64,000 bases of DNA. It comes from Acidobacteriota bacterium. GTDB taxonomy: Bacteria; Acidobacteriota; UBA4820; DSQY01. Both the position numbers and the translations under genes were made by a program. Below are positions 21,240-36,114 of this stretch, in pieces. Position 1 is the first letter of the stretch. Each line of letters begins with the position of its first letter. The notes below the pieces were generated by a model. That model saw only the letters and a program-made list of their open reading frames with translations, was not told the origin of the DNA and searched no databases. Location of the stretch: NCBI GenBank assembly GCA_049591295.1, contig JBAWEQ010000259.1, positions 25,812 through 89,811 on the forward strand, in the 5' to 3' direction.

Positions 21240-22067
21240 TCACGTCCCCTTCACGGCCCTGACCTTCACGCTCACCACCGATTCGGCGGCCGTGGCCACG
21301 TCCTCGGCGGGCAGTCCCTCGGCCAGCGCGGCCAGCTCCGAGGTGTCGGGATTGCTGGAACCGATGGAGTAGGGAGCCTCGCCCACCAGCTCGACCTCGC
21401 TGAAGCCGGCCTCGGCCATGGCTCGGAGGTACTCCTCCTTGAGCATGGCTCCCGAAATGCAGCCGGCGTAGGCTTCGACGGATCCTCGGACGCTCTCGGG
21501 TAGTGGCCGCAAGAGCACGAGATCGGACACCATGAGCCGGCCGCCCGCCTTGAGGACCCGCAAGGCCTCGCGGAAGACTTGCGGCTTGTCGGTGGAGAGG
21601 TTGATGACGCAGTTGGAGATGATCATGTCGGCGGAGGCGTCCGCCACGGGCAGGTGCTCGATCTCGCCCAGGCGGAACTCCACGTTGGCAAGGCCGGCCT
21701 TCGAGGCGTTGGCTCGGGCCCGCTCGATCATCTCCGGAGTCATGTCCACTCCGATGACGCGCCCTGCCGTCCCCACGCGGTGCGCGGCGAGGAAGCAGTC
21801 GAAGCCCGCTCCAGAACCCAGGTCCACTACCGTTTCGCCCTCCCTGAGGTCCGACAGGGCCAGGGGGTTCCCGCAGCCCAGGCCCAGATTGGCGCCCTCC
21901 GGCACCGCACTCAGGTCTTCCCGGCTGTAGCCGATGGCCTCGCCCACTGCGCTGGCGGAACCGGGACCGCAACAGCCCGGCGCGGCTGGGCCGCAGCACG
22001 GCGAGCCACCCCTGGCCACATCAGCGTAGTGCTCTCGAACCGACCTCTTGATCGAATCATCGTTCAT
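21240..22067 (-). CDS. arsM: Arsenite S-adenosylmethionine methyltransferase
   Basis: The N-terminal MNDDSIKRSVREHYADVAR matches the ArsM family. It has paired Cys (CCGP...CCGP), SAM-binding motif I (VVDLGSGAGFD), and a conserved Cys near residue 170 (SNCVINL). Confidence 0.8.
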   Translation of the reverse strand: MNDDSIKRSVREHYADVARGGSPCCGPAAPGCCGPGSASAVGEAIGYSREDLSAVPEGANLGLGCGNPLALSDLREGETVVDLGSGAGFDCFLAAHRVGTAGRVIGVDMTPEMIERARANASKAGLANVEFRLGEIEHLPVADASADMIISNCVINLSTDKPQVFREALRVLKAGGRLMVSDLVLLRPLPESVRGSVEAYAGCISGAMLKEEYLRAMAEAGFSEVELVGEAPYSIGSSNPDTSELAALAEGLPAEDVATAAESVVSVKVRAVKGT

Positions 22068-22216
22068 GCCGGACTCCCTTCACGATCTCTCAGTGCACTC
22101 CAACCTGTTCAAGGAGGAGACGGAGAGAGGAGAAAATGGTTCTCCGCCGCCTCGCCCTTCCGCCGCTCCCTTGTTGCGATTCTCCTCCCTCATTCCCCAC
22201 GGTGCGGCCTCTTTCG

Positions 22217-22641
22217 TCACAGCGCCAGCTCGCGCCGCACGAGGGGCACGACCTTCTCGCGGATCAGGTCGCGCACGCGCCGGAATTCCGTGAGCGCCGC
22301 TTCTCCCTGGGTGCCGAAGGGAGCCGGATCGGGGATGGATGCGTGGACCTGCCGGGCCGCCCCCGGAAAGGCCGGGCACGCCTCATGGGCGGCATCGCAG
22401 ACGGTGGCCACCAGATCGAAGGACTGTTCCCAGTATTCCGAGACCGATTTGCTGCGGTGGCCGCAGAGGTCCACACCCGCCTCGGCCATGACCGCCACGG
22501 CGAGGGGGTGGACCGCGGTGGGTTTTGTGCCCGCGGAAAACACCTCGACGAAATCTCCCAGATCGTGGCGCACCCAACCTTCAGCCATTTGAGACCGGCA
22601 GGAGTTGCCGGTGCACAGGATCAACACGCGCCTTTTCCCGC

Positions 22642-22645
<4 letters not shown>
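22217..22645 (-). CDS. arsC: Arsenate reductase, LMW-PTP/thioredoxin-coupled type
   Basis: 142 aa with a CTGNSCRS P-loop and downstream Cys82/Cys89-type residues. It is the C-terminal portion of the 366-aa ORF in the track. Its ATG overlaps the acr3 stop (ATGA). Confidence 0.8.
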
Positions 22646-23702
<1,057 letters not shown>

Positions 23703-23706
<4 letters not shown>

Positions 23707-24113
23707 GGCCGGCCTCCAGCCGAGACGACGCCCGCCTTGCTCCGTGGACTGGATTCGTCGGAGCATCTTGCCGGCCGATCCTTCGCCTTCTCCCGCCCGG
23801 CCTGTTTGAGGTCCCGCCCGGCTTCCGGATCCTTGACCAGCGCCTTCTCGATGAGCCTCAGCAGCCGCCTCCGCGCGGGATCCTTCTTGATCCCCCTGGC
23901 GATCTCGTAGAAGACCCACTTGCCCCGCTTCTCGTCCTCGATGAGGCACGCGTTCTTGAGCACCGACAGGTGCTTGCTGATAGTGGGCTGGGTGAGATCT
24001 AGAACCGCCACGATCTGGCAGACGCATAGCGGGCCTTCGGCCAGCATATGGAGGATCCGAAGCCTGCTGCGATCCCCGGCCGCCTTTAGCGTGCTTTCCA
24101 GTTCCCTGTACAT
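23703..24113 (-). CDS. arsR: ArsR-family arsenic-responsive repressor
   Basis: HTH_5 domain with an LCVCQI metal(loid)-binding motif. Its 4-nt overlap with acr3 indicates an operon. Confidence 0.8.
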
Positions 24114-24285
24114 TGGTCCTCCTCATATCGTCATATTGGAATATAACGGTGCAAACGGAGGAAGGCAAGTGATGATTTTGCCAGAGGACCCGCTATGCGC
24201 TCCGGGCGAGGCCATCCCCCACTCGGGCACAGCCCGCATCACGGCCTGCGGGTCGTCGCGGAGGGGAAGACTCTGGAAATACCCC

Positions 24286-24987
24286 CTAGGTTCGCCAGCC
24301 GCAGCCGAAGGCGATGGGAAGCCGGACGCGTGATGGCCCGCCCATCTCCATGGCCTTCCGCAGAAGGGTCCCCTCCTCGCTGCCCAGCGTTCCCGTGGAG
24401 ACGAGGAACTCGATCTCCCAGTCGGTCTCCTGTGGATCCTCTGTGGATACCCACTCCCCTGGTGTTTCGCACAGGTCCGGCCTGAATGCCGCTTGCCAAA
24501 GCCAGCCAGCCAGCCGGCTTCCCGCGTCGGGGTGCCCCCCGGCTCTTCGGACGGCGGCCCTCAGGGCCGCGCCCAGTCCGGCGTCCGGCTCATCCTCGCG
24601 GCGAGTGAGATCGGGCTCGGAAAGGATCATCGCCACGCCGCCCGGCGCGAGCACGCGGTGGGCCTCCCTCAGGCAGGCGACTGGATCATTCAACCAGAGG
24701 AGCACGAAGTGGAAGGCCACCGCGTCGAAGGACCCGTCGGCGAAGGGCAGGGCCGCCGCCGTGCCCGCGACCGGGATGACTCCGGCCGCCCCGTGAATGG
24801 CCGGTTCCAGGTCCAGCGCCCATACCTTCCGGCCCATGCGGGAGGCCATCTCCGCCGCGACCTCTCCGCCTCCGGCTCCCACATCGAGGACTCGGCGCCG
24901 CAAGGAGAGCCGGGCCTTCCGGTAGACGGCCAGGCGAATGGGGCGGGTCCGAGCGAACTGATACGGCGACGGCCTGAGCGTATTCAA
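24286..24987 (-). CDS. Class I SAM-dependent methyltransferase (Methyltransf_11-like)
   Basis: Motif I VLDVGAGGG and the post-I acidic residue pattern; 233 aa. Confidence 0.65.
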   Translation of the reverse strand: MNTLRPSPYQFARTRPIRLAVYRKARLSLRRRVLDVGAGGGEVAAEMASRMGRKVWALDLEPAIHGAAGVIPVAGTAAALPFADGSFDAVAFHFVLLWLNDPVACLREAHRVLAPGGVAMILSEPDLTRREDEPDAGLGAALRAAVRRAGGHPDAGSRLAGWLWQAAFRPDLCETPGEWVSTEDPQETDWEIEFLVSTGTLGSEEGTLLRKAMEMGGPSRVRLPIAFGCGWRT

Positions 24988-25020
24988 CTTCCCTCCCCGG
25001 GCCGCTACCTGGCTCGCCCC

Positions 25021-25818
25021 CTATCGGAAGAAGTAGAGTCCGAAGGCCGCCGCCACGACGAAGCGGTAGTAGGCGAAGGGGGTGAGCTTCACCCGCACCA
25101 GGAGGCGCAGGAACCAGACCACGGCCAGCCACCCGACGACGAAGGAGACCAGGAAGCCCACCGCGAACATCCCGACGTCCGAGGAGGGCAGGCTCGAGGC
25201 GCTCTTGAAGAGGTCGAGGCCCGTGGCGGCCACCATGACGGGCACGGCAAGCATGAAGGAGAAGTCCGCCGCGGCGCGCAACCCGAGGCCGAGCAGGAGG
25301 GCCCCCGCGATGGTGGCGCCCGAGCGCGAGAAGCCCGGCCAGAGGGCGAGGCACTGGAAGCAGCCGATGCCGAGGGCCTGGAGGTAGGTGACGGAATCCG
25401 CCGTGGGGGCGGAGACCGGCCGCGGGAACCGTTCCACGAGAATCATCCAGATCCCCCCTCCCACGAGGCCTATGAGGACCGTGGTGGGTGTGAATAGGTA
25501 GGCCTTGATGGCGTGGAAGCCCAGCAACCCGACCACCGAGGCGGGAATCATGCCGAGGGCCATGTGCCAGACGTTGAGCCCCCCCTGGTCCCGCTTGAAG
25601 TGCCAGCGCCAAAGGATCTGCCAGAGGTGTCGCCGGTAGAGCCAGGCCACCGCCAGGATGGCGCCGAGCTGGATGAAGATCTCGAAACTCTTGGAGGCCT
25701 CGCCGGTGAAGCCCAGAAGGCTACCGGTGAGGATCAGGTGGCCAGTGGACGAGACGGGGATGAACTCCGTGAGTCCCTCCACGATGCCCTGGATGATCGC
25801 GATGAGATAGGGATTCAT
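25021..25818 (-). CDS. uppP: Undecaprenyl-diphosphate phosphatase
   Basis: BacA/UppP family with FIPVSSTGHL and SRSGATI motifs and eight TM helices. Confidence 0.85.
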   Translation of the reverse strand: MNPYLIAIIQGIVEGLTEFIPVSSTGHLILTGSLLGFTGEASKSFEIFIQLGAILAVAWLYRRHLWQILWRWHFKRDQGGLNVWHMALGMIPASVVGLLGFHAIKAYLFTPTTVLIGLVGGGIWMILVERFPRPVSAPTADSVTYLQALGIGCFQCLALWPGFSRSGATIAGALLLGLGLRAAADFSFMLAVPVMVAATGLDLFKSASSLPSSDVGMFAVGFLVSFVVGWLAVVWFLRLLVRVKLTPFAYYRFVVAAAFGLYFFR

Positions 25819-25947
25819 GGGACCTGCCTCCCTCCGTGCACCCCGCGCCGACGTCGGAGGCCAACTCGGCGCCCCTGGCCGGGAACAGGCTACTTTATCC
25901 CGCGGCCCCTGGCTTGAAAAGGTGGCGCCCCGCCGGCCATCTCGGCC

Positions 25948-27633
25948 TCAGGGCCTCGGTACGGCCTTGGCCATCCAACGCTTCACCGAGCGGTAGAGGC
26001 CGGGAGGGAAAGCCCCATTCATGAGCGGCGGCCAGCCTACCGCGCCGCCGGGCCCCATCACGACGGGCCCGCCCGCTTCGCCCAGCGGAAAGGGGGCGTA
26101 GATCAGATCCGCCGATCCCAAAGCGAACTCCGTGGTCATCAGGAGGCGCAGGACCATGGGGTTGAGCCGCACCTGCGCCTGGTTCGGCAGGAACTCCGCC
26201 AGCAGGCGAGGCGCCAGCGGAACCCAATCGGCGGGTTCGAGCGCCGGCGGAAGGACCCGGTCCGTCTTACCCAGCGCTATCTCCAGGACGAGCCGGGCCT
26301 CCTCCGCCTCCGCGGCCGGGGCGGCCAGGCCCGCAGCCGCCGAGAGCGACCAGCCGCCGTATCCCTGATACGCCAGCGTGTCGAAGGCGGGTACGCAGAA
26401 GGCGCCTGACAGGCCGGCAGGAGCCGCTCCCTCCCCGAGCACGGCATCCAGCAACTGGAAGGGCGTCGAGTACCGCTTGCCGTCCAGCGTGAAGGTGCCC
26501 TCGATCCGCCAGAAGGGGAGCCAGGCACGGCCCCCTTCGCCGGGCGCGTCGCCGAACCAGCCCTGTCCGACGGTGCGATAGGGAATCACCTGGAGCCCGC
26601 CGGGCGCCGCCCGCAGCATCCGCCCGCAGTTGCCGCATAGCTGATGCTCCGTACCTCCCTGCGGGCTTACGTCCCATCCGCACTCAGGGCAGCGGAAGGC
26701 CACCACGTGGATCGCGGGCGGCCGGACGTCATCGGGGCCCATCACCGGCCAGTCCTTCGCTGCAGCGCGCTCCACCTCCTCCGCTTTGGGGTAACCCGCC
26801 AGCGTGCGGAATTGACCGTCCAGGAGGAACCAGCCCAATCCCTCCGGCGTGCTCGCCTGCACGTAGTAGTAGGGCCGGTAGACCCACCATGCATGAGAAG
26901 CGAACACTTCGGAGTCAAAGAAGATGGGCGCAAGATCGGGTTCCAGGAGCCTGCCCTGCCGCAGCCAGCGTTTCGCGACGCGGCCGGGGTCCGCGTCGGC
27001 CGCCTGGGGCCGCATGAAGCGATGCTTCGCCAGGTCCTCGCCGGACAGGGGACGGAAGCGGAGGTGGGAGACCCACAGACCGGCATCCCTGAAATTCCAA
27101 TCGCTTCCGTAGGCGGGCAACAGATCATCGGCCACGTAAAAGAGGGATTGGAAGGCCTTCCGATCCGCCGGCGGCACGCGACCCAGAACGTGAAAGCCCA
27201 GGGACACCGACACCATGAGGTAGGGCGCGTAGATCCTGGTGTAGCCCCTGAGGGCGAACAGGCCCCGGCGCTTCGCCTTGATCTCGGCCAGGGCTGGAAG
27301 GTTTGCCTCCTGCATGTCCGTCAGGAGCGAGGGGGCATCGTTGCGCCGCGACTGTTGTTGGGCGATCCCAGCCAGGCGCGCCTGCTCCCGGACGGCGTCG
27401 TAGGTCTGGAGCACGTCGAGCAAGTCGTCCCGGGATCGGATGCGGTCCTCGGCCAGAAGGAAGCGCCTCTCTCCCTCCGGTTCCGGCCAGAGGAGGCGCG
27501 AGTCGCAGTAGGAGCAGACGTTCAGCCGCTGCAGAAGCCCCCAGCGGTTCTCTCCCCCGCAGTTGGGACAGGCCGCCCAGACCTCGTGATCGAGCGCCCC
27601 TGATCCCTCTCCCCGTCCCGCCTCCTCCGCCAT
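25948..27633 (-). CDS. Hypothetical protein with two zinc-ribbon modules (start at MAEEAGRG with a strong GGAGGGA RBS; ORF maximum extends to 27831)
   Basis: CPNCGG...CSYC near the N-terminus and CPECGW...CGNCG mid-protein. No recognisable catalytic motifs. Codon bias is consistent with a coding sequence. Confidence 0.5.
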   Translation of the reverse strand: MAEEAGRGEGSGALDHEVWAACPNCGGENRWGLLQRLNVCSYCDSRLLWPEPEGERRFLLAEDRIRSRDDLLDVLQTYDAVREQARLAGIAQQQSRRNDAPSLLTDMQEANLPALAEIKAKRRGLFALRGYTRIYAPYLMVSVSLGFHVLGRVPPADRKAFQSLFYVADDLLPAYGSDWNFRDAGLWVSHLRFRPLSGEDLAKHRFMRPQAADADPGRVAKRWLRQGRLLEPDLAPIFFDSEVFASHAWWVYRPYYYVQASTPEGLGWFLLDGQFRTLAGYPKAEEVERAAAKDWPVMGPDDVRPPAIHVVAFRCPECGWDVSPQGGTEHQLCGNCGRMLRAAPGGLQVIPYRTVGQGWFGDAPGEGGRAWLPFWRIEGTFTLDGKRYSTPFQLLDAVLGEGAAPAGLSGAFCVPAFDTLAYQGYGGWSLSAAAGLAAPAAEAEEARLVLEIALGKTDRVLPPALEPADWVPLAPRLLAEFLPNQAQVRLNPMVLRLLMTTEFALGSADLIYAPFPLGEAGGPVVMGPGGAVGWPPLMNGAFPPGLYRSVKRWMAKAVPRP

Positions 27634-28028
27634 GCTCCCTCCGCCGGATCCCATCGGGGTCCGGGCCTTGAGGTTAGCACAGTCGGTGTCATCAGCGATG
27701 GCCGCCGATCCTGCCGAGGGCCTCCTGGAAATGGGGAGAGCCCCTGTTCTCCACGTGGGTTCCGCCATCCAGGGCAGCCCTCCCTTCGTCCGTTCCGACC
27801 CATCCTCGATGGGTGTGCCGCTTCGGCACATCCGGGCCCCGATGCCCCGGCCGCTTTGGCACGGTTCATCCCTTCACATTTCACAATGAGCTGAAAAAAC
27901 GTCATTTCCCCTCCTCGGGGGAACTGGCATGCGTGATGCATTCAAGAAAACCTTCGGTGCCGAGGACAACGTCCCAGGCGCCGAGAGGTTCGGCCCCTCC
28001 GAACCCAATCCCTCCCTCCCCTTCCACA

Positions 28029-28050
28029 GGCCCGCCCGCAAGGGCGGGCC
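28029..28050 (+). other. GC-rich stem-loop GCCCGCCC-GCAA-GGGCGGGC (GNRA-like loop) within a long intergenic region
   Basis: 8-bp perfect stem with a GCAA tetraloop followed by CGCCCCATTTCT. No upstream gene on either strand for it to terminate. Confidence 0.35.
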
Positions 28051-28135
28051 GCCCCATTTCTAGGGGCGTGCCCCGTGCTTGAGGAAGAGACTCGGCCCCG
28101 CTTTCGATCACCAGCCGCGCGCTGGGCCCGTGCTA

Positions 28136-28335
28136 GTGCGCTGTCTCTAAAATGGGTTGACCATTGAAGCATGTGAGAGACAGCACACGGAGGGGTGCTG
28201 GGAGGAAGCCTCCCCGCTCCTTCGGGGTAACAGCCCCCGCGGGCGGACGCCCTAGGGGCGGAGCCCCTTGGGAAGTGTTGTGTCCCAGGAAAAAGCCATG
28301 GTAAACACAATCCAGGGACACAACACTAGCATGGA
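28136..28335 (+). ncRNA. Candidate structured RNA / 5' leader upstream of 28353 (series of stable hairpins, two mutually exclusive)
   Basis: Hairpin 28140-28184 (GCTGTCTCT...AGAGACAGC), GGGAGG-aagc-CCTCCC at 28198-28214 competing with CCCCG-ctcctt-CGGGG at 28212-28227, and a 15-bp stem GTGTTGTGTCCCAGG/CCAGGGACACAACAC at 28275-28326 ending 9 nt before the RBS. None of the ORFs in this region look like genes. Confidence 0.35.
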
Positions 28336-28352
28336 AGGCCGAGGAGCGAAGC

Positions 28353-28715
28353 ATGGATGATCTGCACGTGAGGGCCGTCACGGCCGATGAACAGGAACGG
28401 TTGGTCAGCTGCCTGCTCTGCGGAGAACTCTTCGAGGCCGGCTCCGAGGCCGCCGTGCTCTACGATGGCGATGAGCCGATGGGTGAACTCTGCCCCGCCT
28501 GCCTCCGGTCAGGCCCGAGAGAGGCGGCCCTGCGCGCACGCGAGTATGCCGCACAGCTCCACGCCATGGCCGAAGGCTACCTCGGATTGGCGGAGCAGGT
28601 GGAGTCTTTGGACGGATGGATGAACCGCCGTGGCGAAGCCCCTGGCCGGCTCTCGTCCGTTGAGACCGAGAAACATCCCCCTCCCAACGATCCCCGACGT
28701 TACAAACCGGTCTAG
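28353..28715 (+). CDS. Hypothetical small protein with CxxC...CxxC
   Basis: 120 aa, GAGGAG RBS, GC3-rich codons, and a zinc-ribbon-like CLLCGE...CPAC pattern. Confidence 0.4.
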   Translation: MDDLHVRAVTADEQERLVSCLLCGELFEAGSEAAVLYDGDEPMGELCPACLRSGPREAALRAREYAAQLHAMAEGYLGLAEQVESLDGWMNRRGEAPGRLSSVETEKHPPPNDPRRYKPV

Positions 28716-28782
28716 GAGGGCCTGGCCGGGTGACGGGTCCCTCTTCCTGGCCCCCTTCTCCCCGCCTTACTCCCCGCCACGT

Positions 28783-28876
28783 CTTGCGGCGGCTCCGCTA
28801 TCTCCCTCACCCCCCGCTGGCCACCTCCCGGCAGATCAGCTTCTGGTGCGCCGCCTCCAGCGGACACCCGCCGCCG
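28783..28876 (-). repeat. Direct repeat duplicating the 3' end of the radical SAM/SPASM gene (copy of 29020-29112)
   Basis: The minus strand encodes GGGCPLEAAHQKLICREVASGG-stop, versus CGGGCPLEAAHQKLYCREVASGG-stop at the genuine C-terminus. About 90% nt identity over ~90 nt, and the similarity continues into the 3' flank (GAGCCGCCGCA). Confidence 0.7.
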
Positions 28877-29042
28877 CGTCGCGCAAGCGCTCCCCAAGGA
28901 GGGCCTCGGCCGGCCCTCCTCGGCGCTCCCCCGGCCTTCGCCGGGCTCGCTGCTCCTCTCTGCTCTTGCGCGGGTTGCCCTCTGCGCGGGGGAACCTCTC
29001 CGTTCCCCCGCTCCCCCTCGCCCTGCGGCGGCTCCCTTCCCC

Positions 29043-30389
29043 TCACCCCCCGCTGGCCACTTCCCGGCAATAGAGCTTCTGATGGGCCGCCTCCAGCGGA
29101 CACCCGCCGCCGCAGAGGCTGAGGTGCTCACAGGCCTCGCACTCGGGCAGGGGCTTCTGGGGCTGACGGAGCTTGAGGCAGAGGGGGTGGTTCCAGATGG
29201 ACTCCCACGAATCGGTCAGAAGGTTGCCTACGCCTTCGTAATAGGATTGGCAGGGGATGACCGTTCCGTCCGGCTCCACCGCCATGCTCAGCCTCGCCGC
29301 CGTGCACTGCTTGACGCCGAGCGCCATCTCCACGGGGTTCAACTCGCAGTACCGCGTCGGGGTGTACCAGACGAAGCGGAGCCGCTTTTCGCGGGCCTGA
29401 CGGGCCAGCGTTTCCAGAACGGGTGCGACCTCCCGCGAGGTGAGGTCGATGCCCGAGCTCTTGCCCTTGCCCGAGTAGATCATCCCGTTGACGGCAAAGG
29501 TGCCGAGACCTTCGGCGGCCACCAGATCCACGAGGTTCTCGATGCCGGGCAGGTTGACCCGCGTGAGCGTGGTGTTGGTCAGGGTGAAGAGGCCCGAAGC
29601 CTTGGACTGGCGGAGCCCGGCCAGGGTCTCCTCGAAGGAGTCGGATCGGGTCAGGGCGTTGTGGAGGCTCGGATCGGCCGACTCCAGGGTGATCTGGACG
29701 TGATCCAGACCGGCCTCCCGAAGCGCCCCCGTGTAGGCGGCGTCCCGCAGGCGCCGCCCGTTGGTGTTGAGGCCCGTGACCAGCCCAAGCTCTCCGGCGT
29801 AGGCCACCAGCGCGGGCAGGTCGTCGCGGAGCGTGGGCTCGCCTCCCGTGAAGACCACGTGCGGTATGCCCGCCGACTCGCAGGCGTCCAGCACCCGCCT
29901 CCAACCAGCCGTGTCTAGCTCGGAGACCTGCCTGGATTCCTGGTTGTAGCAGTGGCTGCACCGGTTCTGGCAACGGTAGGTGAGGGCCAGGTCCATGCGC
30001 AGCGGGGCGCTCATGGCGGTTGAGAAGGGCTCGATGAGCTCGATCCCCAGGTCCGACAGGGGACAGACCTGGTCCGTGGCGGAGAGCCTACGCACCGCCT
30101 GGAGGATGCGCGAGAGGTCCGGTTCCAGCACCGCGCGCTTTACGCGATAGCGCCGGGCCATGAGATCCACCGTCTCGGCCTCGCTCAATCCGTCCACCAG
30201 GTGCTTCACCATCTCCGCCGCGGTGGGGTTCAGGTGGAGGATGCGGCTGGCGTCGAGGGTAAGGACTCCGGCTCCCGAGGGCTCGACCCGGAGGTGGATC
30301 CGGTGGGTGGTCCCCTCCACGATGAGGGTCCCCGGGTAGAGTCCCACCTTGACCCGCTCGGGTCTCCTGAAGAGGTCTCTCAGCCCCAT
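29043..30389 (-). CDS. Radical SAM/SPASM-domain peptide-modifying enzyme with N-terminal PqqD-like RRE domain
   Basis: CQNRCSHC (CxxxCxxC) radical SAM cluster motif. The N-terminal ~110 aa resemble a PqqD/RiPP-recognition element (LHLNPTAAEMVKHLVDG...). The C-terminal SPASM Cys array is CEACEHLSLCGGGCP. Confidence 0.8.
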   Translation of the reverse strand: MGLRDLFRRPERVKVGLYPGTLIVEGTTHRIHLRVEPSGAGVLTLDASRILHLNPTAAEMVKHLVDGLSEAETVDLMARRYRVKRAVLEPDLSRILQAVRRLSATDQVCPLSDLGIELIEPFSTAMSAPLRMDLALTYRCQNRCSHCYNQESRQVSELDTAGWRRVLDACESAGIPHVVFTGGEPTLRDDLPALVAYAGELGLVTGLNTNGRRLRDAAYTGALREAGLDHVQITLESADPSLHNALTRSDSFEETLAGLRQSKASGLFTLTNTTLTRVNLPGIENLVDLVAAEGLGTFAVNGMIYSGKGKSSGIDLTSREVAPVLETLARQAREKRLRFVWYTPTRYCELNPVEMALGVKQCTAARLSMAVEPDGTVIPCQSYYEGVGNLLTDSWESIWNHPLCLKLRQPQKPLPECEACEHLSLCGGGCPLEAAHQKLYCREVASGG

Positions 30390-30450
30390 GGCATCCTCCC
30401 TTTGCCCTCACTCCTGCGCACCAGGTCGAGCCTATTTCCCTTCGGGCCGT

Positions 30451-31989
30451 TCATCTTCCGCCTCCCGCGCAGGCGCAGGCGCAGCCAGCGCAAGCGCAAG
30501 CACAGGCGCAGCCTCCTCCCGAGGCGTGGCCCGAAGACTGCGGCACGGGATTCGTCTGCTGGGTGACCTTGGTGGCGAGGCCGGGGACGCTGTTCACCAG
30601 GTCGTGGGCGAACCCCTCCAGCCCCGTCACGACGGTGTTGGCCGCCGCCACGGGGCTCGGAGCGGGCACTCCTCCCCCCGCCGTTCCGGCCGTATGGCCG
30701 GTGTATAAGGGCACCCACCAGACGGGGAGCGGCATGGGGTTGTTCCCGAAACGCTGCGCGGCCTGCTGGCCGAACTCCTTGTCCAGGAGCATCCATTCGA
30801 AGGCCTGGGCGTAGTCCTGGCTCCCCACCTGCTCCCACGCCTTCCTCATGATCTCGCGGTAGTAGAGGACGCTCTTCTTCCGGCTGAAGCCCTTCATCTT
30901 CTCCTGGACCCGCTTGATGAGGTCCGTCAGGACCGCCACCGCCTCCTTCTCGCTGATTCGGCCGTCGTCCTGAACGGCCTTGGCGAAGGCCTGCTCGTAG
31001 TCCGCGGCCGGGGCCTCCCCCGGTACCAGCTCCAGCTTCAGCGGCGCTCGTCCCACCACCTTCAGGAGGTTCTTCCGTATCATGCCGAAGAGGAGGAGGG
31101 CCATCACCTTGTCCACGGGCTCCTCCATGAGGACGGCTACCTCGGGCACCGTCAGCCCCCTCCGCACCTCCACTCCCTCCATCCCGATGCTGGGCGGCAG
31201 GTATTTGAGGCGCCGACGCCGCGACTGGACGATCACCAGGATGAAGAGGCCGAAGAAACCAGCCATGAAGACGCAGGGCAAGGCACCGAGGATGAGCTGC
31301 CCCAGGGCTGCCGCCATCCTGGCGGCCGGCCCCGGCCCCTTCGGAACGGCAGCCAGCCGCTCCATGACCTTGGCCGGGAACGACGCCCCGAAGGTGACCT
31401 GGCGGGAGGGAGAGGCGTTCGGCATGTCCCACGTGTAGATGACCCGGCCTTGCTCCACCCGGGCCGAAGTGAAAGGCGTACCGTGGTAGCGGGGGTCGTC
31501 GGGCCCCACGCCCTCGGGGAAAACGAAGCTGCAGACCAGGAGAGTGGTCCCCGAGGTGTACTGGGAGCCGTACCAGGTGGGACTGAATTCCAGGCTGGCG
31601 TAGGAGGAGTCCTTGCTGTCGGGGAACACCCTGTTCCTGGCCACGGCCGAGAGGTGCAGCGTTCCCTCGGAGCCTGCGGGAATGGCCCTCTCGCCCAGAT
31701 GGACCTCCACCCCATACTGGAGGTAGGAAGAGGGCCGGATATCCGTCAGGGCCGCCCCATCCAGGTCGGCCTTCACCCCCTTCAGATCGTACTGGCCGTC
31801 GGGGAGGCCCACGTCGATGACGTCGATCGGCTGTCCCTGGTTCCGGAAGGTGATGGCGTACCGAATGGTGATGGAGGCGTCGCGATTCACCTCGACGACG
31901 CTGCGGTTCTGCGGTACCTCGAACCGGTAATCGGCCAGGACAGCGAGGCCCACCGCCAGGGCCACCAGGGCAACGAACAGTCTCTTCAT
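30451..31989 (-). CDS. DUF2207-like membrane protein with C-terminal (Cys-Ala)n tail (start at MKRLFVAL after a GGAGGGGG RBS; ORF maximum extends to 32028)
   Basis: Signal peptide, an extracytoplasmic N-domain (YRFEVPQNRSVVEVNRDASITIRYAITF), TM helices, a cytoplasmic domain, and the terminal GGGCACACACAGCACACAGGGR. Confidence 0.6.
   Translation of the reverse strand: MKRLFVALVALAVGLAVLADYRFEVPQNRSVVEVNRDASITIRYAITFRNQGQPIDVIDVGLPDGQYDLKGVKADLDGAALTDIRPSSYLQYGVEVHLGERAIPAGSEGTLHLSAVARNRVFPDSKDSSYASLEFSPTWYGSQYTSGTTLLVCSFVFPEGVGPDDPRYHGTPFTSARVEQGRVIYTWDMPNASPSRQVTFGASFPAKVMERLAAVPKGPGPAARMAAALGQLILGALPCVFMAGFFGLFILVIVQSRRRRLKYLPPSIGMEGVEVRRGLTVPEVAVLMEEPVDKVMALLLFGMIRKNLLKVVGRAPLKLELVPGEAPAADYEQAFAKAVQDDGRISEKEAVAVLTDLIKRVQEKMKGFSRKKSVLYYREIMRKAWEQVGSQDYAQAFEWMLLDKEFGQQAAQRFGNNPMPLPVWWVPLYTGHTAGTAGGGVPAPSPVAAANTVVTGLEGFAHDLVNSVPGLATKVTQQTNPVPQSSGHASGGGCACACACAGCACACAGGGR
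30456..30516. repeat. Simple sequence repeat (GCAGGC/GCAAGC hexamer units) encoding the Cys-Ala tail
   Basis: Minus-strand sequence tgc gcc tgt gct tgc gct tgc gct ggc tgc gcc tgc gcc tgc, imperfect 6-nt tandem units. Confidence 0.6.
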
Positions 31990-32226
31990 GACCTTTTCCC
32001 CCTCCGAAGCGGTCGGCCTTCGCCGCACCTTCCCGGTACCCTCAGCGGCGGGGCGCCGCTTTGCGAGTCATCCCCGTCGCTCTCCCTCCAAGAGAAGCCC
32101 TTCCGACGGGTCGCGGGTTCTATGTACTCCGCGCTACCGCCCATACTGCCCAACCGGCACCACCCGATCGCTCCGGGGACCGCCTTCGAGGAAACCCTCG
32201 AGATGGTGATGTCGGCTTCGCCGCGA

Positions 32227-32676
32227 TCACCACTTGGGCTCCTCTTGGATCAGGAAGGAGCCTTTGCAGTAGGGACAGGTGAGGGTGAGCGTCCCCTCGG
32301 GATTCAGGCGCGCCGTGGAGGCATCCACCTGGCCGCCGCAGTGCGGGCAGTTGAGCGCCTTGAGATTGATCTCTCCCGGCGGCTCCTGCCCCCGGGCCAC
32401 GCCGCCGGAGAGATCCCCCGGCTGGCCGGTGCTCCGCGAGGCGTTGCGGGCGAGGACCACGGCCAGGGCCGCCAGCAGCAGGCCTCCCAGCAGGAGGATC
32501 CCGCCGATCGCCGCCCTGGGAAGGCTCTTGCCCTGCGCCACCGCGTCGGGGTGAAAGGCCGAGAGGACGAAGATCGTCCCCAGGAAGAGCAGGGGCAGGC
32601 ACAGCACCACCGCCAACAGGACCAGCAGCCAGATCAGGGCGGGGAATGTCGTCGAACCTCGGCTCATGTGCCTCAT
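32227..32676 (-). CDS. Membrane protein with C-terminal zinc ribbon
   Basis: Two TM helices followed by CPHCGG...CPYCKG. Its 4-nt overlap with the upstream phosphatase gene indicates an operon. Confidence 0.5.
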   Translation of the reverse strand: MRHMSRGSTTFPALIWLLVLLAVVLCLPLLFLGTIFVLSAFHPDAVAQGKSLPRAAIGGILLLGGLLLAALAVVLARNASRSTGQPGDLSGGVARGQEPPGEINLKALNCPHCGGQVDASTARLNPEGTLTLTCPYCKGSFLIQEEPKW

Positions 32677-33350
32677 TGTAGGCTTCCGGGGCCCGGTTGG
32701 GGGAGTTGGGGTCCGGCAGGAATCATCGGATCGGGCATTTCCCGCACCTCCCCGCGCAGCCTGGCCCTATCCAGCCCCGCTACGTAACGCCTGAGGTTCA
32801 AAAAGACCGGGTGGAAGCCGAAGTTCGGCAACTCCGCTTCCGCCAGTGCCGGATCCCAATCCTGAACCACCACGCGGTAGGCCGCGACCATGACGCCGGT
32901 GCGGTCGGAACCGTGCTGGCAGTGCACGAAGACCGGCTGGCAGGCCGCGTCGGTGGCCAGCTTCAGGAAGAGGACCACGGGGGCATCATTTATGCGCCAG
33001 GCGTCGCAGGGAATCTCCACGTACCGAATGCCTAGGTCCGCCAGAAGCGGGGCATCGCTGTGGTGGTCCCGAAGGTTGATGACCGTTCGCACACCCATGG
33101 CTTTCAGGCTTTCGAACCCTTCCCGCGTGGGCTGGGCGCCCCGATAGAGGCCGTCGGACACCCGGGCGAAGTTGGGTAGGCCGGAGAGATCTCCTCGCGG
33201 CACGGCCAGGCCGCCGAGGTAGGAGGGGGTCGCTTTCAGCGAACGGGCTCCTGCTGCGGCGAGCAACAGGCAGAGCACCGCCGCACCCGCCGCCAGGACG
33301 GGAAGCGAGGTTCCTGGCCCGTTCCCCTTTGCGCGTGGGTCTTCCCTCAT
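32673..33350 (-). CDS. Protein-tyrosine/dual-specificity phosphatase (CX5R)
   Basis: HCQHGSDRTG active-site loop, with an N-terminal signal/anchor. Confidence 0.7.
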   Translation of the reverse strand: MREDPRAKGNGPGTSLPVLAAGAAVLCLLLAAAGARSLKATPSYLGGLAVPRGDLSGLPNFARVSDGLYRGAQPTREGFESLKAMGVRTVINLRDHHSDAPLLADLGIRYVEIPCDAWRINDAPVVLFLKLATDAACQPVFVHCQHGSDRTGVMVAAYRVVVQDWDPALAEAELPNFGFHPVFLNLRRYVAGLDRARLRGEVREMPDPMIPAGPQLPQPGPGSLQ

Positions 33351-33363
33351 GGCAGCGCCTCCC

Positions 33364-34935
33364 TCAGAGCTTGGACCAGAAGCGCCCGAACACCACGGTG
33401 GTCAGGATGAAGCCCAGCGGCACGTTGACGAGCACGCCGATGGTGAAGGCCCAGAACGGCTTGAGGCCGAAGGTCGCCAGGTCTCGGAAGCGCGTAGAGA
33501 GGCCGATGCAGAGGAAGCACAGCACGAAGGCCCAGGAGCGCAACTTCTTGATGGGGGCGATCACCTTGGGCGTGAGAACGCTCTCGAACCAGTTGCTCGA
33601 ACGGGCCAGCGCGGCGATGGCCCAGCGCTGGTCCTGGGTTGTGGCCGCCTCCTCCAGAAGCCGCTGCTCTTCGCGGGTCATGGTCCCCGAAAAGCCAAGC
33701 TCCCCCTTCACGGCGTCAATCGTGAACTTGCCGGCCAGCGAGGGCGGCACTGCGAAGGAGGAGAAGTCCGCCTGGTGGGCCGCGCCCTGAAATCGCCCCT
33801 CCATCCTCGCCGCCCCTCCATGGCCGGTCGGAGGACGGCCCGCGACCAGGCTCATGACCACCGACGCCAGGAGAAATCCGATCACGAACTTCGGGAAGCG
33901 TTCCCAAACGATGCCTGCTCCCACCCGCCCCTTGGCCCCACCGCCGTCCTCCCAGAAAACCACCGACACCACGGAGAGGATGAGGCACCAGATCCCGATC
34001 CAGATGTCCCGGCCGATGACCTTCATCAGCGTGAAAGCGTTGATGGGGGCATCACCGAAGCGGGTGGCCAGCTCGGCCACTACCGCGAATCCGGCGGCGT
34101 CGGCGAACTCCGAGTTGCCCACCCAGGCCCCCGCCTCCCCCGGCGAGATGGGGTTGGGAACGGTGTGCTTCAGGATGATGGTGAGGGCGAAGATCATGAC
34201 GATGGCCCAGACGGTCACCACGGCGATGGCGATGGAGATGTGGTCCTTCTTGGCCTTCACGGCCCCGCCTACGGCGATGGAGGCGGAGACACCGCAGACG
34301 GCCCCTGCTGCTCCCAGCACGGCTCCGAATTTGGGCTCCAGTTTGAAGAGCCGGGTCGCGGCCAGGTAGATCGTCAGCCACGTTGTAACGGAGACGATGG
34401 TGGCCTGCAGGAAGGCCACGGGACCCGCCGAGAAGACGAGGGTAAGGGGAAGGGTTGCGCCGAGAAGCACGATGCCCGTCTTGATGTAGTACTCGGTGCA
34501 GAGGCACTCCTTGCACCACTCGGGAATGCCCAGCGTATTGGAGATGACCAGCCCCGCGATGAGGGCGAGGAGAGGGGCCTCCACGTTGAACTCCTCCATC
34601 ACCTTCCAGCCCGCCGCGTAGAAGATCACCAGGGAGCCGACGAAGAGAAGGGCGAAACCCGGGACGAACCTCCTGGGGGAGTGGCCCATGATGGCCATGG
34701 ATAGGGAGAAGACCACTCCGAAGAGCAGGAAGATGGCCAGGTAACCGGCGGCGTGTTGCGCCAGATCCTGGGGGACGGCCGAAAGGTGTGTCCACTTGGG
34801 AGGCGTCACCGCCCACCCTTGGATGGACCCCCCGGACCAGAAGGCGGCGAGGGCGAAGAGAACCAGCCCCATGCCAAACCATACGGACCACCAGTCCTCG
34901 GTCTTCCACAGTTTCTCGATCCCGCCGGGCGCCAT
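33364..34935 (-). CDS. Polytopic membrane transporter, UPF0324/YeiH-like (putative sulfate exporter family)
   Basis: 523 aa, 10+ TM helices, and duplicated Gly-rich helices typical of YeiH/PSE-like proteins. Confidence 0.5.
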   Translation of the reverse strand: MAPGGIEKLWKTEDWWSVWFGMGLVLFALAAFWSGGSIQGWAVTPPKWTHLSAVPQDLAQHAAGYLAIFLLFGVVFSLSMAIMGHSPRRFVPGFALLFVGSLVIFYAAGWKVMEEFNVEAPLLALIAGLVISNTLGIPEWCKECLCTEYYIKTGIVLLGATLPLTLVFSAGPVAFLQATIVSVTTWLTIYLAATRLFKLEPKFGAVLGAAGAVCGVSASIAVGGAVKAKKDHISIAIAVVTVWAIVMIFALTIILKHTVPNPISPGEAGAWVGNSEFADAAGFAVVAELATRFGDAPINAFTLMKVIGRDIWIGIWCLILSVVSVVFWEDGGGAKGRVGAGIVWERFPKFVIGFLLASVVMSLVAGRPPTGHGGAARMEGRFQGAAHQADFSSFAVPPSLAGKFTIDAVKGELGFSGTMTREEQRLLEEAATTQDQRWAIAALARSSNWFESVLTPKVIAPIKKLRSWAFVLCFLCIGLSTRFRDLATFGLKPFWAFTIGVLVNVPLGFILTTVVFGRFWSKL

Positions 34936-35208
34936 GATCCCCTCCCCTCAGCCGGCGGTCCCGCTCCGCGGAGCTGTTCGGCCCTCGCTCCCGCGGCCCC
35001 CGGACAACGCGCCGGTCCTGTCATCGAAGATCCCACCGAAGTGTAGCACGGAGGTGACCTCTCCCCACACCGGACGGCCCATCGAGCCTCGCACCGGCCA
35101 ATACCCCATGAAGAGACGATCGGCCAACCTTCGCTCCAGTGTGGACCGCTCTTCGTAAGCCGGGAATATACTTCAAGTCGAAACGATTTAATGTGATCTT
35201 ACGACGAG

Positions 35209-35697
35209 GTGATCATGCCAACCCGCTACCGGGGCACGGAAGAGGAAGAGAGAGCGCTGAACGCCTTCATCACGCTCATGCGGGCCGGGGAGTCGCTCTC
35301 CGCCCGTCTGACCCGCGATCTGGCGGGCAAGGGTCTGACCATGACTCAGTTCGGGGCTCTTGAGGCCCTGCTCCATCTGGGCCCGCTCTGCCAGCGTGAT
35401 CTGGGGAGCAAGCTGCTCAGGAGCGGCGGCAACATCACCCTCGTCGTGGACAACCTGGAGAAGCAGGGCTTGGTCCGCCGCGATCGGGACGGATCGGACC
35501 GCCGCTACGTCACGGTGAGCCTCACGTTCGAGGGCCGGCGCCTCATCGAGCGCGTCTTCAGGGAGCACCTGACACTCATCGTAGGCGAGATGGCCGTTCT
35601 CTCACCGCGAGAACAGGAGAATCTGCGCAGGCTCTGTCGTTCCCTCGGCCTGGGCGTGAAACAGCACAAGGGGGGCACCGAGCCCCCAAAGGAGTGA
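35209..35697 (+). CDS. MarR-family transcriptional regulator
   Basis: Winged HTH (TMTQFGALEALLHLGPLCQRDLGSKLL...DRRYVTVSLT). Confidence 0.8.
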   Translation: MIMPTRYRGTEEEERALNAFITLMRAGESLSARLTRDLAGKGLTMTQFGALEALLHLGPLCQRDLGSKLLRSGGNITLVVDNLEKQGLVRRDRDGSDRRYVTVSLTFEGRRLIERVFREHLTLIVGEMAVLSPREQENLRRLCRSLGLGVKQHKGGTEPPKE

Positions 35698-35700
35698 AAC

Positions 35701-36114
35701 ATGGATCGGTCATTGGAACGCTACGCCCCTCTGATCGGAAGGATCTTGCTCTCCGTCATCTTCTTGTTCTCGGCCTTTGGCAAGGTCACCCACTTCTCGG
35801 GTATGGAGCAGTTCATGGCCTCCAAGGGCATGCCGGCGGTGCCGGTGCTGCTCGTGCTGGCCCTGCTCACGGAGGCGCTGGGAGGGCTCTCTCTCCTGTT
35901 GGGATTCAAGGCCAGGTGGGGAGCGCTTCTGCTCTTCTTGTTCCTCATTCCGACCACGCTGATCTTCCATGACTTCTGGGCCCTCACGGGAGCCATGCGG
36001 CAGGACATGCAGATCCACTTCCTCAAGAACCTTGCCATCATGGGCGGCCTCTTGATGGTCGCCGCCAACGGCCCCGGGGCCTTCAGCCTGGACAAGCCGG
36101 CCAAGGGTCGCTGA
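35701..36114 (+). CDS. DoxX-family membrane protein
   Basis: 137 aa with four TM helices and a DoxX pattern. Confidence 0.7.
   Translation: MDRSLERYAPLIGRILLSVIFLFSAFGKVTHFSGMEQFMASKGMPAVPVLLVLALLTEALGGLSLLLGFKARWGALLLFLFLIPTTLIFHDFWALTGAMRQDMQIHFLKNLAIMGGLLMVAANGPGAFSLDKPAKGR

Follow-up and report, generated by a model that had tools for sequence, protein, structure and literature searches.

In the mining for small peptide natural products, radical SAM/SPASM enzymes that carry a peptide-recognition domain serve as markers, and the locus described here raises the question of what such an enzyme modifies where its neighborhood offers a large membrane protein and no small precursor gene. Within the window, i.e. 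the whole 64,000-nucleotide stretch of an Acidobacteriota contig (JBAWEQ010000259.1) that was analyzed, a gene of this kind directly follows one whose product ends in seven cysteines alternating with alanines. We lean towards the reading that a RiPP-type radical SAM (rSAM) enzyme acts post-translationally on the C-terminal tail of the full-length membrane protein, within a conserved, membrane-associated gene cassette. We found no description of this system in the literature searched.

A cysteine-alanine tail on a membrane protein

The tail protein gene (30451..31989, minus strand) starts at an ATG at position 31989 preceded by GGAGG and encodes 512 aa, or 525 aa from an alternative GTG start at 32028. 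The encoded protein terminates in ...SGHASGGGCACACACAGCACACAGGGR-stop, the last 19 residues of which (residues 494–512, nt 30454-30510, minus strand) constitute the tail proper and the proposed modification site, CACACACAGCACACAGGGR-COOH. This tail follows the pattern (CA)4-G-(CA)3-GGGR, and a six-frame scan located the Cys/Ala motif only once in the window. Upstream of it, a signal peptide or N-terminal anchor precedes an extracytoplasmic beta-sandwich (residues ~20–210), a transmembrane (TM) helix (31207..31329, minus strand; AlphaFold2 helix, residues 221–261), and a cytoplasmic winged-helix and helical domain (residues 266–480), while the tail is disordered in the AlphaFold2 model and strictly C-terminal. 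Since the TM helix is followed by QSRRRRLKY, the positive-inside rule would put the tail, along with the rest of the C-terminal half, on the cytoplasmic side. About 10–20 variable Gly/Ser residues ahead of the tail lies a conserved segment (residues 448–483; 30541..30648, minus strand) with two helices, (F)ANxIVxGxExFxxxLVxN, then VTxxTNPxP. A450, T476, T479, and P481 of this segment are invariant across 84 sequences, N480 and P483 nearly so, and the helical part is also kept in the archaeal subfamily; we regard it as a candidate recognition sequence for the peptide-binding domain (RRE) of the enzyme.

The tail family, hosted by anaerobic bacteria and archaea, comprises roughly 400–1100 clusters at 50% identity, and every full-length member seen ends in (Cys-Ala)n-GGGR with 2–10 cysteines. 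Cultured hosts include Anaerolinea thermophila, Bellilinea caldifistulae, and a Leptolinea sp. Among the 120 closest homologues of the window protein, 118 carry a near-unchanged tail, and an unbiased HMMER search recovered the tail, or a form of it with five or more cysteines, in 135 of the best 150 representatives, two more having 2–3 cysteines and the remainder being fragments or one chimeric contig end. The same tail is encoded by 81 different DNA sequences across 83 loci, in genomes of 36–70% GC and with every synonymous codon and all three stop codons in use, which indicates selection for the peptide itself. In Bathyarchaeia, a ten-cysteine tail is borne by a protein body that is only 27% identical, with 15 of 17 tail core positions common to the bacterial and archaeal subfamilies, making the tail the most conserved part of the protein in this comparison. 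Each cysteine is nearly always followed by Ala, with Val instead in some variants from archaea and bacteria, and the number of Cys-Ala units ranges from 2 to 10 with the pattern kept, as expected of a repeated, iteratively worked site. Overall, the tail looks like the substrate core of a peptide-modifying enzyme.

An earlier reading made from the sequence alone (hereafter, the sequence-only reading) had described this seven-cysteine tail, and the open reading frame, its homologues, and the 81 DNA spellings establish it as real. The assignment of the protein to DUF2207 (PF09972/PF20990) in the same reading fared less well. DUF2207 proteins share a signal sequence, an extracytoplasmic beta-sandwich, TM segment(s), a cytoplasmic region, and a Gly-rich C-terminal end; the AlphaFold2 model of the tail protein appears to have a similar architecture, and some homologues are named DUF2207 by NCBI. 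However, neither Pfam model matches the window protein, even at E <= 1, and of 24 relatives, PF09972 picks out one (E 0.0086) and PF20990 two (E 0.0015). To our knowledge, a Cys-Ala tail and linkage to an rSAM gene are not features of DUF2207.

The radical SAM enzyme and its gene neighborhood

The enzyme gene (29043..30389, minus strand; 448 aa) lies 61 nt downstream of the tail gene, and Pfam matches counted above the gathering score (PqqD, Radical_SAM, SPASM) bear out the RRE-rSAM-SPASM architecture initially proposed. The RRE (nt 30078-30344, minus strand) matches PqqD over residues 45–100 with 30.9 bits (cut-off 23.4) and is predicted to form four strands and three helices (residues 16–104). 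Downstream in the chain, the CX3CX2C motif (residues 140–147; nt 29949-29972, minus strand; Radical_SAM, 86 bits) has C140, C144, and C147 invariant in 56 orthologues. The SPASM domain (nt 29100-29348, minus strand; 38 bits vs. a cut-off of 21.5) presents the seven-cysteine pattern for two auxiliary clusters, with C362, C380, C417, C420, C426, and C430 invariant and C348 nearly so; the last cysteine (C441) is missing in many Anaerolineae. Alignments with the RRE-bearing SkfB and SuiB span most of each chain. On the strength of its PqqD/RRE domain, which exceeds the Pfam gathering score, we class the enzyme among those that bind peptides.

A conventional precursor was sought both in the window and at related loci. 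On the minus strand, region 28716-29042 contains no ATG (four GTG and two TTG are present), and its only notable ORF is a degenerate copy of the 3' end of the rSAM gene. Related loci yielded no conserved cluster of small ORFs, and the spacing between tail and rSAM genes is mostly 0–140 nt, leaving no room for a precursor gene. The lack of a small precursor ORF pointed out in the sequence-only reading thus extends to the related loci, and the end of the 512-aa protein is the only Cys-rich candidate substrate in the cassette.

The linkage between enzyme and tail was recovered from both sides. Of 73 assessable tail loci, drawn from Acidobacteriota, Chloroflexota, Zixibacteria, Cloacimonadota, Dehalococcoidales, and “delta proteobacteria”, 66 have an rSAM orthologue (43–75% identity) beside the tail gene, and the tail protein is found at 65 of about 68 assessable rSAM loci. 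For the 80 closest rSAM relatives in metagenomes, a canonical tail ORF sits directly upstream in 55, the archaeal ten-cysteine variant is found in 10 more, and 3 are clearly without a tail protein. Enzyme and tail are accordingly neighbors at ~90–95% of assessable loci in either search direction, with the proviso that Anaerolineae dominate these loci and the counts are not phylogenetically independent. The association persists over many bacterial phyla, Bathyarchaeia, and differing gene orders, including zinc-ribbon, rSAM, pseudo-rSAM, tail, and methyltransferase genes in this order (locus L171) or two tandem tail proteins followed by rSAM (L172), and in Edwardsbacteria MAG059 the tail protein is on one contig and the rSAM and methyltransferase genes on another, i.e. 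both are present though unlinked. As a rule, rSAM homologues are paired with the tail protein and not with a small precursor, and we observed neither a conventional precursor elsewhere nor orthologous proteins lacking the tail beside the same enzyme, the two comparative findings that would have spoken against the sequence-only reading. Counting against the tail as rSAM substrate, ~10% of tail genes have no rSAM gene within 5–10 kb, and one locus (L168) encodes three tandem tail proteins and a methyltransferase with no rSAM within 6.5 kb.

The cassette includes further conserved genes. Just upstream of the tail gene, a two-TM protein (32227..32676, minus strand) carries a cytoplasmic CxxC...CxxC zinc ribbon (nt 32266-32349, minus strand) and ends in QEEPKW (EEPKW at nt 32230-32244, minus strand). 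In 75 of 83 loci its gene comes immediately before the tail gene, often overlapping it or separated by a few nucleotides; the ribbon is found in 74 of 74 ORFs of the corresponding cluster, nearly all of which terminate in (T/V)EEPKW, with EEPTW, EEPLW, or EKPIW in archaea. The fourth cassette gene encodes a class I SAM-dependent methyltransferase (24286..24987, minus strand; 233 aa; Pfam Methyltransf_11, 69.5 bits; best NCBIfam match to the DVU_1556 family, 70.9 bits vs. a cut-off of 155), which in the window lies ~4 kb downstream of the rSAM gene, displaced by inserted genes. Orthologues of this methyltransferase occur in 51 loci, usually right behind the rSAM or pseudo-rSAM gene, and the window copy is 52% identical to the one directly after rSAM in the nearest relative (L089). 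Its co-occurrence with tail proteins without a nearby rSAM (L020 and L168) argues for modification of the tail. Anaerolineae cassettes add a cysteine-less pseudo-rSAM paralogue in which the RRE is kept. The sequence-only reading had listed the zinc-ribbon membrane protein, which proves to be a conserved partner, but missed its strict EEPKW end along with the methyltransferase and the pseudo-rSAM paralogue. Conversely, the CX5R phosphatase and YeiH-like transporter it included have no counterpart in any of the 83 related loci and fall outside the system, and the 4-nt overlaps it described hold for the zinc-ribbon/phosphatase pair and for no other.

Comparison with known maturation systems

The enzyme scores below the curated NCBIfam cut-off, and far below it in each case, for all 25 listed maturase families (among which PqqE, MftC, SkfB, AlbA, StsB, ScmE, ACGX, GeoRSP, GDL, WgkB, HxsC, and SbtM). 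SCIFF/CteB and the ranthipeptides (PapB, NxxcB) likewise combine an RRE-rSAM-SPASM enzyme with a Cys-rich C-terminal sequence unusually conserved between species, and with repeated sites and (putatively, in the present case) iterative action. There, however, the substrate is a ~45-aa peptide with Thr, Asp, or Asn acceptors, whereas here it would be the end of a 512-aa integral membrane protein, with Ala, Val, or Gly as proposed acceptors and with a zinc-ribbon partner, methyltransferase, and pseudo-rSAM accompanying the enzyme; related maturase models also score far below their cut-offs (e.g. ACGX, 75 vs. 400 bits). The sactipeptide maturases SkfB/AlbA share the domain order (RRE, rSAM, C-terminal auxiliary-cluster domain) and a PDB sequence match of 61.7 bits, but the SkfB, AlbA, and StsB family models reach only 53–75 bits (cut-offs 300–850), no small precursor, protease, or ABC exporter is found here, and the “core” is invariant instead of variable.

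The best family matches are to PqqE (120.6 bits) and MftC (99.4 bits), far below the cut-offs of 381 and 265 bits, respectively; the PDB match, 6c8v, scores 80 bits. As in the PqqE/PqqD/PqqA and MftC/MftB/MftA systems, the putative modified sequence is invariant and C-terminal; unlike in these systems, RRE and enzyme form a single chain, no Glu/Tyr or Val/Tyr pair occurs in the putative substrate, and no further PQQ or mycofactocin genes are present. A further parallel is offered by QhpD-QhpC and the anaerobic sulfatase-maturing enzyme (anSME), in which a SPASM rSAM enzyme modifies cysteine in a protein that keeps the modification for its function, as proposed here, with no natural product released. 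Still, anSME has no RRE, and its C/S-x-P/A-x-R site is not found in the tail, where the Arg stands five residues past the last Cys and cannot be brought into a Pro/Ala-x-Arg register. QhpC, for its part, is a soluble subunit of small size in which Asp/Glu act as acceptors, and in neither system is the target a repeat at the C-terminus of a membrane protein. Finally, metallothionein-type CxC binders show the same dense CxC spacing with small residues between cysteines, but differ from this 19–27-residue tail in that it is carried by a membrane protein, has its intervening residues fixed as Ala, and is genetically tied to a radical enzyme.

Proposed tail modification and alternatives

From these data we infer the following substrate relation and chemistry. 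After insertion of the tail protein, topology suggests that the beta-sandwich would lie outside the cell and the C-terminal half inside, leaving the last 19 residues, (Cys-Ala)4-Gly-(Cys-Ala)3-Gly3-Arg, disordered in the cytoplasm with the zinc-ribbon partner alongside. The soluble rSAM enzyme would dock through its N-terminal PqqD-like RRE on the helical/TNPxP segment before the tail, and could then use its radical SAM cluster, together with the two auxiliary clusters of the SPASM domain, to abstract hydrogen from the residue beside each Cys (Ala, or in archaea either Ala or Val) and join the Cys sulfur to carbon, probably creating thioether links of the sactionine or ranthionine type. By analogy with SkfB, CteB, PapB, and QhpD, the enzyme would act iteratively along the Cys-Ala units. 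In most bacteria, the class I methyltransferase would add a further step, with the remaining thiols, the terminal Arg, or the carboxylate as possible targets, and in Anaerolineae the RRE-keeping, cysteine-less paralogue is probably a non-catalytic helper. The product would stay protein-bound as a rigid, sulfur-rich, and possibly metal-binding or redox-active end-piece, no natural product being released. The tail had been put forward as enzyme substrate in the sequence-only reading; comparative genomics now adds linkage in both directions and the lack of a precursor, while the modification itself is still a proposal. Counting against it, Ala, Val, or Gly acceptors would be rare among known thioether-forming enzymes.

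More tentatively, and as a possibility we do not ourselves rate as probable, the RRE-rSAM-SPASM enzyme, helped by the methyltransferase and the dead paralogue, might install thioether or other radical crosslinks in the (Cys-Ala)n end. The outcome would be a sulfur-rich cofactor or metal site that stays bound to the protein and is conserved in Bathyarchaeia as well as in Acidobacteriota and Chloroflexota. The tail protein would then be the first full-length membrane protein “precursor” to retain its product, and new chemistry on alanine acceptors may be involved, e.g. radical lanthionine-like or sactionine rings between neighboring Cys and Ala. The cassette reaches hundreds of anaerobic species in both prokaryotic domains, and hardly any RiPP core matches the strict conservation of its tail. 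Its existence suggests that machinery associated with small natural products also performs housekeeping reactions at the end of a large membrane protein. If confirmed, tail modification would widen the range of substrates for RRE-rSAM-SPASM enzymes, account for a class of “orphan” rSAM maturases without a precursor gene, and give a first functional handle on the DUF2207-like family; it may also reveal a new protein-bound sulfur or metal center and thioether chemistry on alanine. The idea can be tested with two or three genes and a 70-residue fragment.

A rather unlikely alternative is that the tail is an unmodified metal- or iron-sulfur-binding module, with the rSAM enzyme acting on a membrane lipid or small molecule or receiving electrons or clusters from it. 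Metallothionein-like thiolate cluster binders typically show the CxCxCxCxxCxCxC pattern, and the resemblance counts against modification in that such a tail could work unmodified; a cysteine count of 2–10 among subfamilies suits a scaling of capacity, and part of the tail genes lack a neighboring rSAM. Yet the enzyme has a PqqD/RRE peptide-binding domain, where the lipid enzyme Gms instead has a six-helix N-terminal domain, the cassette holds no other conserved candidate substrate gene, and metal-binding tails accept many residues between cysteines, whereas the near-fixed Ala or Val after each Cys points to enzyme recognition or reaction at this position.

The strictly conserved C-terminus of the zinc-ribbon partner offers an alternative or additional target: we consider it improbable that the enzyme acts on this protein and not on the tail alone, either by modifying EEPKW (e.g. 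a Lys-Trp link, as in StrB/SuiB) or by crosslinking its Trp to a tail Cys. The zinc-ribbon protein is the most constant neighbor (75/83 loci), its end is shared by nearly all copies, and a TPR protein adjoins rSAM in loci where the rSAM and tail genes are unlinked, TPR being among the domains known to recognize acidic C-termini. However, the Lys is not kept in archaea, some cassettes (e.g. L009) combine tail protein, rSAM, and methyltransferase with no zinc-ribbon gene detected nearby, the zinc-ribbon protein next to rSAM in Edwardsbacteria belongs to another type and lacks EEPKW, and the Cys-rich tail better fits the usual donors of SPASM maturases.

It is very improbable that the tail protein serves as a true RiPP precursor, its body acting as a giant leader and its last ~20 residues being cleaved off after modification to give a small, sulfur-rich product or cofactor, comparable to PQQ or mycofactocin. 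Cofactor-type RiPPs (e.g. PqqA and MftA) typically have invariant cores, PqqE is the best NCBIfam and PDB sequence match of the enzyme, and a variable Gly/Ser linker precedes the tail; but the cassette has no conserved protease, peptidase, or exporter, and a 500-aa two-domain membrane protein with a conserved ectodomain, whose body is itself under selection at many invariant positions, would be a costly single-use leader. Lastly, a tail arising by accident from low complexity, or from a feature of the nucleic acid (repeat or hairpin), and standing next to rSAM by coincidence, as its GC-rich, hexanucleotide-like coding repeat might suggest, has next to no likelihood given conservation across two domains of life and the lack of any Rfam match within 24000-36000, and is refuted by the free synonymous variation of 81 DNA spellings in 83 loci.

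Cys-Ala tail in bacterial and archaeal homologues

The 512-aa membrane protein encoded at 30451-31989 (minus strand; NCBI protein WBS54_16585, 100% identity) ends in GGGCACACACAGCACACAGGGR, which matches exactly the tail reported in the earlier sequence-only reading. In a word-seeded search, which favours sequences sharing words with the query, the 120 best homologues (down to 34% identity) came from Acidobacteriota, Cloacimonadota, Chloroflexota, Edwardsbacteria, and Deltaproteobacteria, and 118 carried the same or nearly the same 19 terminal residues, the other two being fragments. An unbiased search without a word index, in which a HMMER profile of 84 members was compared to 1.84 billion cluster representatives, yielded 1112 matching representatives at E ≤ 1e-3, 837 at ≤ 1e-10, and 426 at ≤ 1e-30. 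Among the best 150 of these, 76 had the canonical tail, 6 an archaeal tail with 10 Cys, and 53 other Cys-rich variants, such as (CA)3-G-(CA)4-GGGR, a single block (CA)5-6-GGGR, or CACACACVSCACACAGGGR. Two more had short tails (HCACACAGGGR and SCACAGGGR), and the remaining 13 were fragments, save one protein on a contig with a chimeric end. The sole apparently tail-less member of the best 150, P0504, lies on a 1.8-kb contig (L173:1500-1825), and terminates in the widespread junk sequence ...STRLNSSH.../...HTSELQSP...; the tail is thus probably missing through faulty assembly, and so short a contig ending in junk or chimeric sequence is uninformative on the context of tail-less members. Across the best 150, the constant piece is ...CACAGGGR at the extreme C-terminus, and the tails carry from 2 to 10 Cys-Ala units.

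A Bathyarchaeia subfamily extends this pattern to archaea, with all 120 listed homologues ending in C[VI]CAC-xx-CACACAC-V[SG]-CACACA-[GH]GG[AG]R or a close variant. The body of the archaeal protein is 27% identical to that of the window protein, and 15 of 17 core tail positions are the same. At the DNA level, 81 different spellings of the tail were found among 83 loci, with Cys codons about evenly split, all four Ala and Gly codons, all six Arg codons, and all three stop codons in use, in genomes of 36 to 70% GC. This variety shows that it is the peptide and its terminal position that are under selection, and with so much synonymous variation a repeat maintained at the DNA level is ruled out. 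The tail protein also occurs in tandem, with three copies in one locus (L168, 1-4166) and two in another (L172, 273-3571), and within a locus the copies differ in their number of Cys-Ala units, L168 having tails with 2 and 6 Cys and L172 tails with 6 and 5.

Linkage to a radical SAM enzyme and other cassette partners

The pairing of the tail protein with the 448-aa radical SAM enzyme (rSAM; 29043-30389, minus strand) was surveyed from both sides. The tail-side scan covered one genome per GTDB species with patterns derived from the tail, and returned at least 309 related loci, the best 80 of which were kept. An rSAM orthologue (>200 bits, 43-75% identity) adjoined the tail gene in 66 of these best 80, usually 0-140 nt downstream; 7 loci ended too soon to judge, 6 had no rSAM within 1.4-10 kb, and L071 had a weaker match (197 bits) directly downstream. 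A separate lineage, P0103, was also without a neighboring rSAM. On the enzyme side, 55 of the 80 metagenomic proteins most similar to rSAM (410-711 bits) were preceded directly by the end of a canonical tail ORF and 10 by the archaeal tail variant, with 7 lacking upstream sequence, 5 having <0.7 kb of it, and the tail protein clearly absent in 3. Against the earlier reading would have counted rSAM homologs consistently paired with a small precursor peptide and never with DUF2207, or orthologous proteins beside the same rSAM that lack the Cys-Ala tail; in these two sets, both dominated by Anaerolineae and each limited to the best 80 from a longer series of matches, the survey instead found the tail pairing in 66 tail-side and 65 enzyme-side loci.

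About one in ten tail genes has no rSAM nearby. Edwardsbacteria MAG059 is the one such genome that was searched for an rSAM elsewhere: contig 22 carries the tail protein, and contig 119 an rSAM orthologue (470 bits) together with a TPR protein, a methyltransferase, and a further zinc-ribbon protein. Gene order also varies among linked copies: L171 reads zinc-ribbon, rSAM, pseudo-rSAM, tail protein, methyltransferase, and L172 holds the zinc-ribbon gene, two tail proteins, and rSAM, with the methyltransferase on the other strand. These three arrangements speak against inherited synteny as the whole explanation. An rSAM not beside a tail protein adjoins a TPR-repeat protein in an Edwardsbacteria MAG (L084:2726-3934) and in a metagenome contig (L095:3751-5265). 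The ORFs following the unlinked MAG059 tail gene (L007:11639-12677) resemble, by eye, cysteine synthase (CysK) and serine acetyltransferase (CysE), which may be a coincidence or may reflect cysteine supply.

No conserved small ORF was found to accompany rSAM across loci. In the window, the 1.2-kb stretch after the rSAM gene (27832-29042) has no credible gene on the minus strand and no RNA matching Rfam, and the ORFs there that might encode a precursor proved either spurious or part of a degenerate duplicate of the rSAM 3' end, in agreement with the earlier view that a small precursor ORF is absent beside rSAM.

Three further partners recur. The gene for a two-TM zinc-ribbon protein (32227-32676, minus strand, in the window) immediately precedes the tail gene in 75 of 83 loci, with a few bases of overlap between the two frames in archaeal loci. 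The CxxC...CxxC motif is present in each of the 74 ORFs clustered with it, nearly all of which end in (T/V)EEPKW, the archaeal proteins ending in EEPTW, EEPLW, or EKPIW. A class I methyltransferase of ~250 aa, found in 51 loci and usually located after rSAM or pseudo-rSAM, matches Methyltransf_11, its best NCBIfam match being the DVU_1556 family, below cut-off; in two loci (L020 and L168) it adjoins tail proteins that have no rSAM nearby, and it is absent from archaeal cassettes. The terminal Arg of the tail is nearly invariant in bacteria (P0001-P0120), where the methyltransferase is usually present, and archaeal tails (P0241-P0360, P0478-P0501), with no adjacent methyltransferase, are looser, ending in GGAR, GGAH, GGVG, or GGAG. 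From these tail ends, the Arg or the C-terminus could be a methylation site. Finally, a pseudo-rSAM of ~385 aa follows rSAM in 41 of 65 loci, mainly in Anaerolineae, and is absent from the window. This paralogue (e.g., L035:13062-14222, L083:7266-8447, L052:13014-14279, and L171:4712-6004) is 33% identical to rSAM and keeps an RRE-like N-terminus, but its CX3CX2C motif is gone, as are most or all of the SPASM cysteines.

Enzyme type and proposed tail modification

Matches to Pfam PqqD, Radical_SAM, and SPASM, all above gathering score, uphold the initial assignment of the enzyme as an RRE-radical SAM-SPASM protein, and the enzyme has the CX3CX2C motif along with the complete array of SPASM cysteines. 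The AlphaFold2 model (pLDDT 84.9, pTM 0.87) has a partial TIM barrel and a SPASM domain besides an RRE, built of strands and three helices, at 16-104. Comparison values were highest for the sactionine synthase SkfB (28.9, 335 residues aligned) and the Lys-Trp crosslinker SuiB (28.0, 361 residues aligned), followed by anSME (25.4), ChlB (24.7), PqqE (24.2), and the SCIFF maturase CteB (24.0). On predicted fold, rSAM thus counts as a typical SPASM peptide maturase with an RRE. A role as the lipid-crosslinking enzyme Gms was rejected on domain architecture. No NCBIfam family came near its own cut-off (the best, PqqE, at 120.6 vs 381 bits), and by these cut-offs rSAM is in no named family. The protein passes as an RRE-rSAM-SPASM maturase on domain tests, and fails on the presence of a small precursor gene and on the cut-off of every named family.

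The tail protein model (pLDDT 85.9) starts with an N-terminal hydrophobic segment and a beta-sandwich domain (residues ~20-210), followed by one long TM helix (221-261) and the sequence RRRR, a cytoplasmic winged-helix-like and helical domain, two conserved helices (450-479), and a disordered end (485-512, pLDDT < 50). Pfam DUF2207 models failed on this carrier protein and barely matched a few relatives, so the DUF2207 assignment first proposed is not retained, "DUF2207-like" denoting at best a remote likeness in architecture. The positive-inside rule would place the tail in the cytoplasm and hence in the same compartment as rSAM and the methyltransferase, neither of which has a signal sequence.

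Taken with the conserved pairing, these features make it fairly likely that rSAM modifies the Cys-Ala tail. The RRE would bind the conserved pre-tail segment (residues 448-483), and the enzyme would work along the repeated Cys-Ala units, forming Cys-S-to-carbon links, a step modelled on its closest structural and functional relatives; that these are specifically thioether links is a more tentative proposal by analogy. A tail binding a metal or cluster in unmodified form is an unlikely alternative. Spacer residues in simple metal-binding sequences are free to vary, but every Cys in the tail is followed by Ala, or by Val in some archaeal and bacterial variants, and unit number alone varies; a fixed Cys-Ala unit in variable number thus fits a repeated reaction site better. 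Less likely again, the EEPKW terminus of the zinc-ribbon partner (32230-32244, minus strand), the second strictly conserved protein end in the cassette, might be the rSAM target or a crosslink partner. For the favored tail modification, the methyltransferase would add a finishing step in bacteria, and the modified product would remain on the protein, because the tail is invariant and the cassette includes no protease or exporter; release of a cofactor from the tail is the least probable of these three alternatives. Retention would bring the logic closer to that of QhpD-QhpC and sulfatase maturation, in each of which the product is kept on the protein, than to that of antibiotic RiPPs.

The enzyme type is known and the chemistry probably so, and we rate the substrate class and the cassette as new and their distribution as unusually wide. 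Literature on the motif, on DUF2207, and on rSAM/SPASM enzymes with Cys-rich tails or full-length protein substrates yielded no description, in a search that most subscription journals lay outside, so that an earlier description is possible.

Gene neighborhood in the window

The sequence-only reading had also grouped with the system a CX5R dual-specificity phosphatase (32673-33350) and a YeiH-like membrane protein (33364-34935), both on the minus strand; tblastn against 83 related loci found no counterpart of either, and both were dropped from the cassette. Also without counterpart in related loci, and likewise rejected, are a 627-aa minus-strand protein (25948-27831) with several zinc-ribbon motifs and no family match, and a 120-aa plus-strand ORF with CxxC...CxxC (28353-28715) between rSAM and the methyltransferase. 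The window methyltransferase (24286-24987, minus strand) is 52% identical to the one directly after rSAM in the nearest relative, and in the window genome, an Acidobacteriota MAG, the 627-aa gene, uppP (25021-25818, minus strand), and the gap seem to be insertions that came between rSAM and its methyltransferase. A 111-nt direct repeat (28767-28877 vs 29003-29113; 78% identity, 236 nt apart) copies ~70 nt from the end of the rSAM gene and the 40 nt that follow, its downstream copy yielding a spurious ORF ending in ...GGGCPLEAAHQKLICREVASGG, and is probably a scar left when the insertion split these two genes. Directly downstream of the methyltransferase, on the same strand, lies an arsenic-resistance cluster (21240-24168) in which ACR3 scores 460 bits, ArsM scores 344 bits, and an ArsC-like arsenate reductase falls short of its curated cut-off; the ORF with the ACR3 match is long and begins well upstream of that match.
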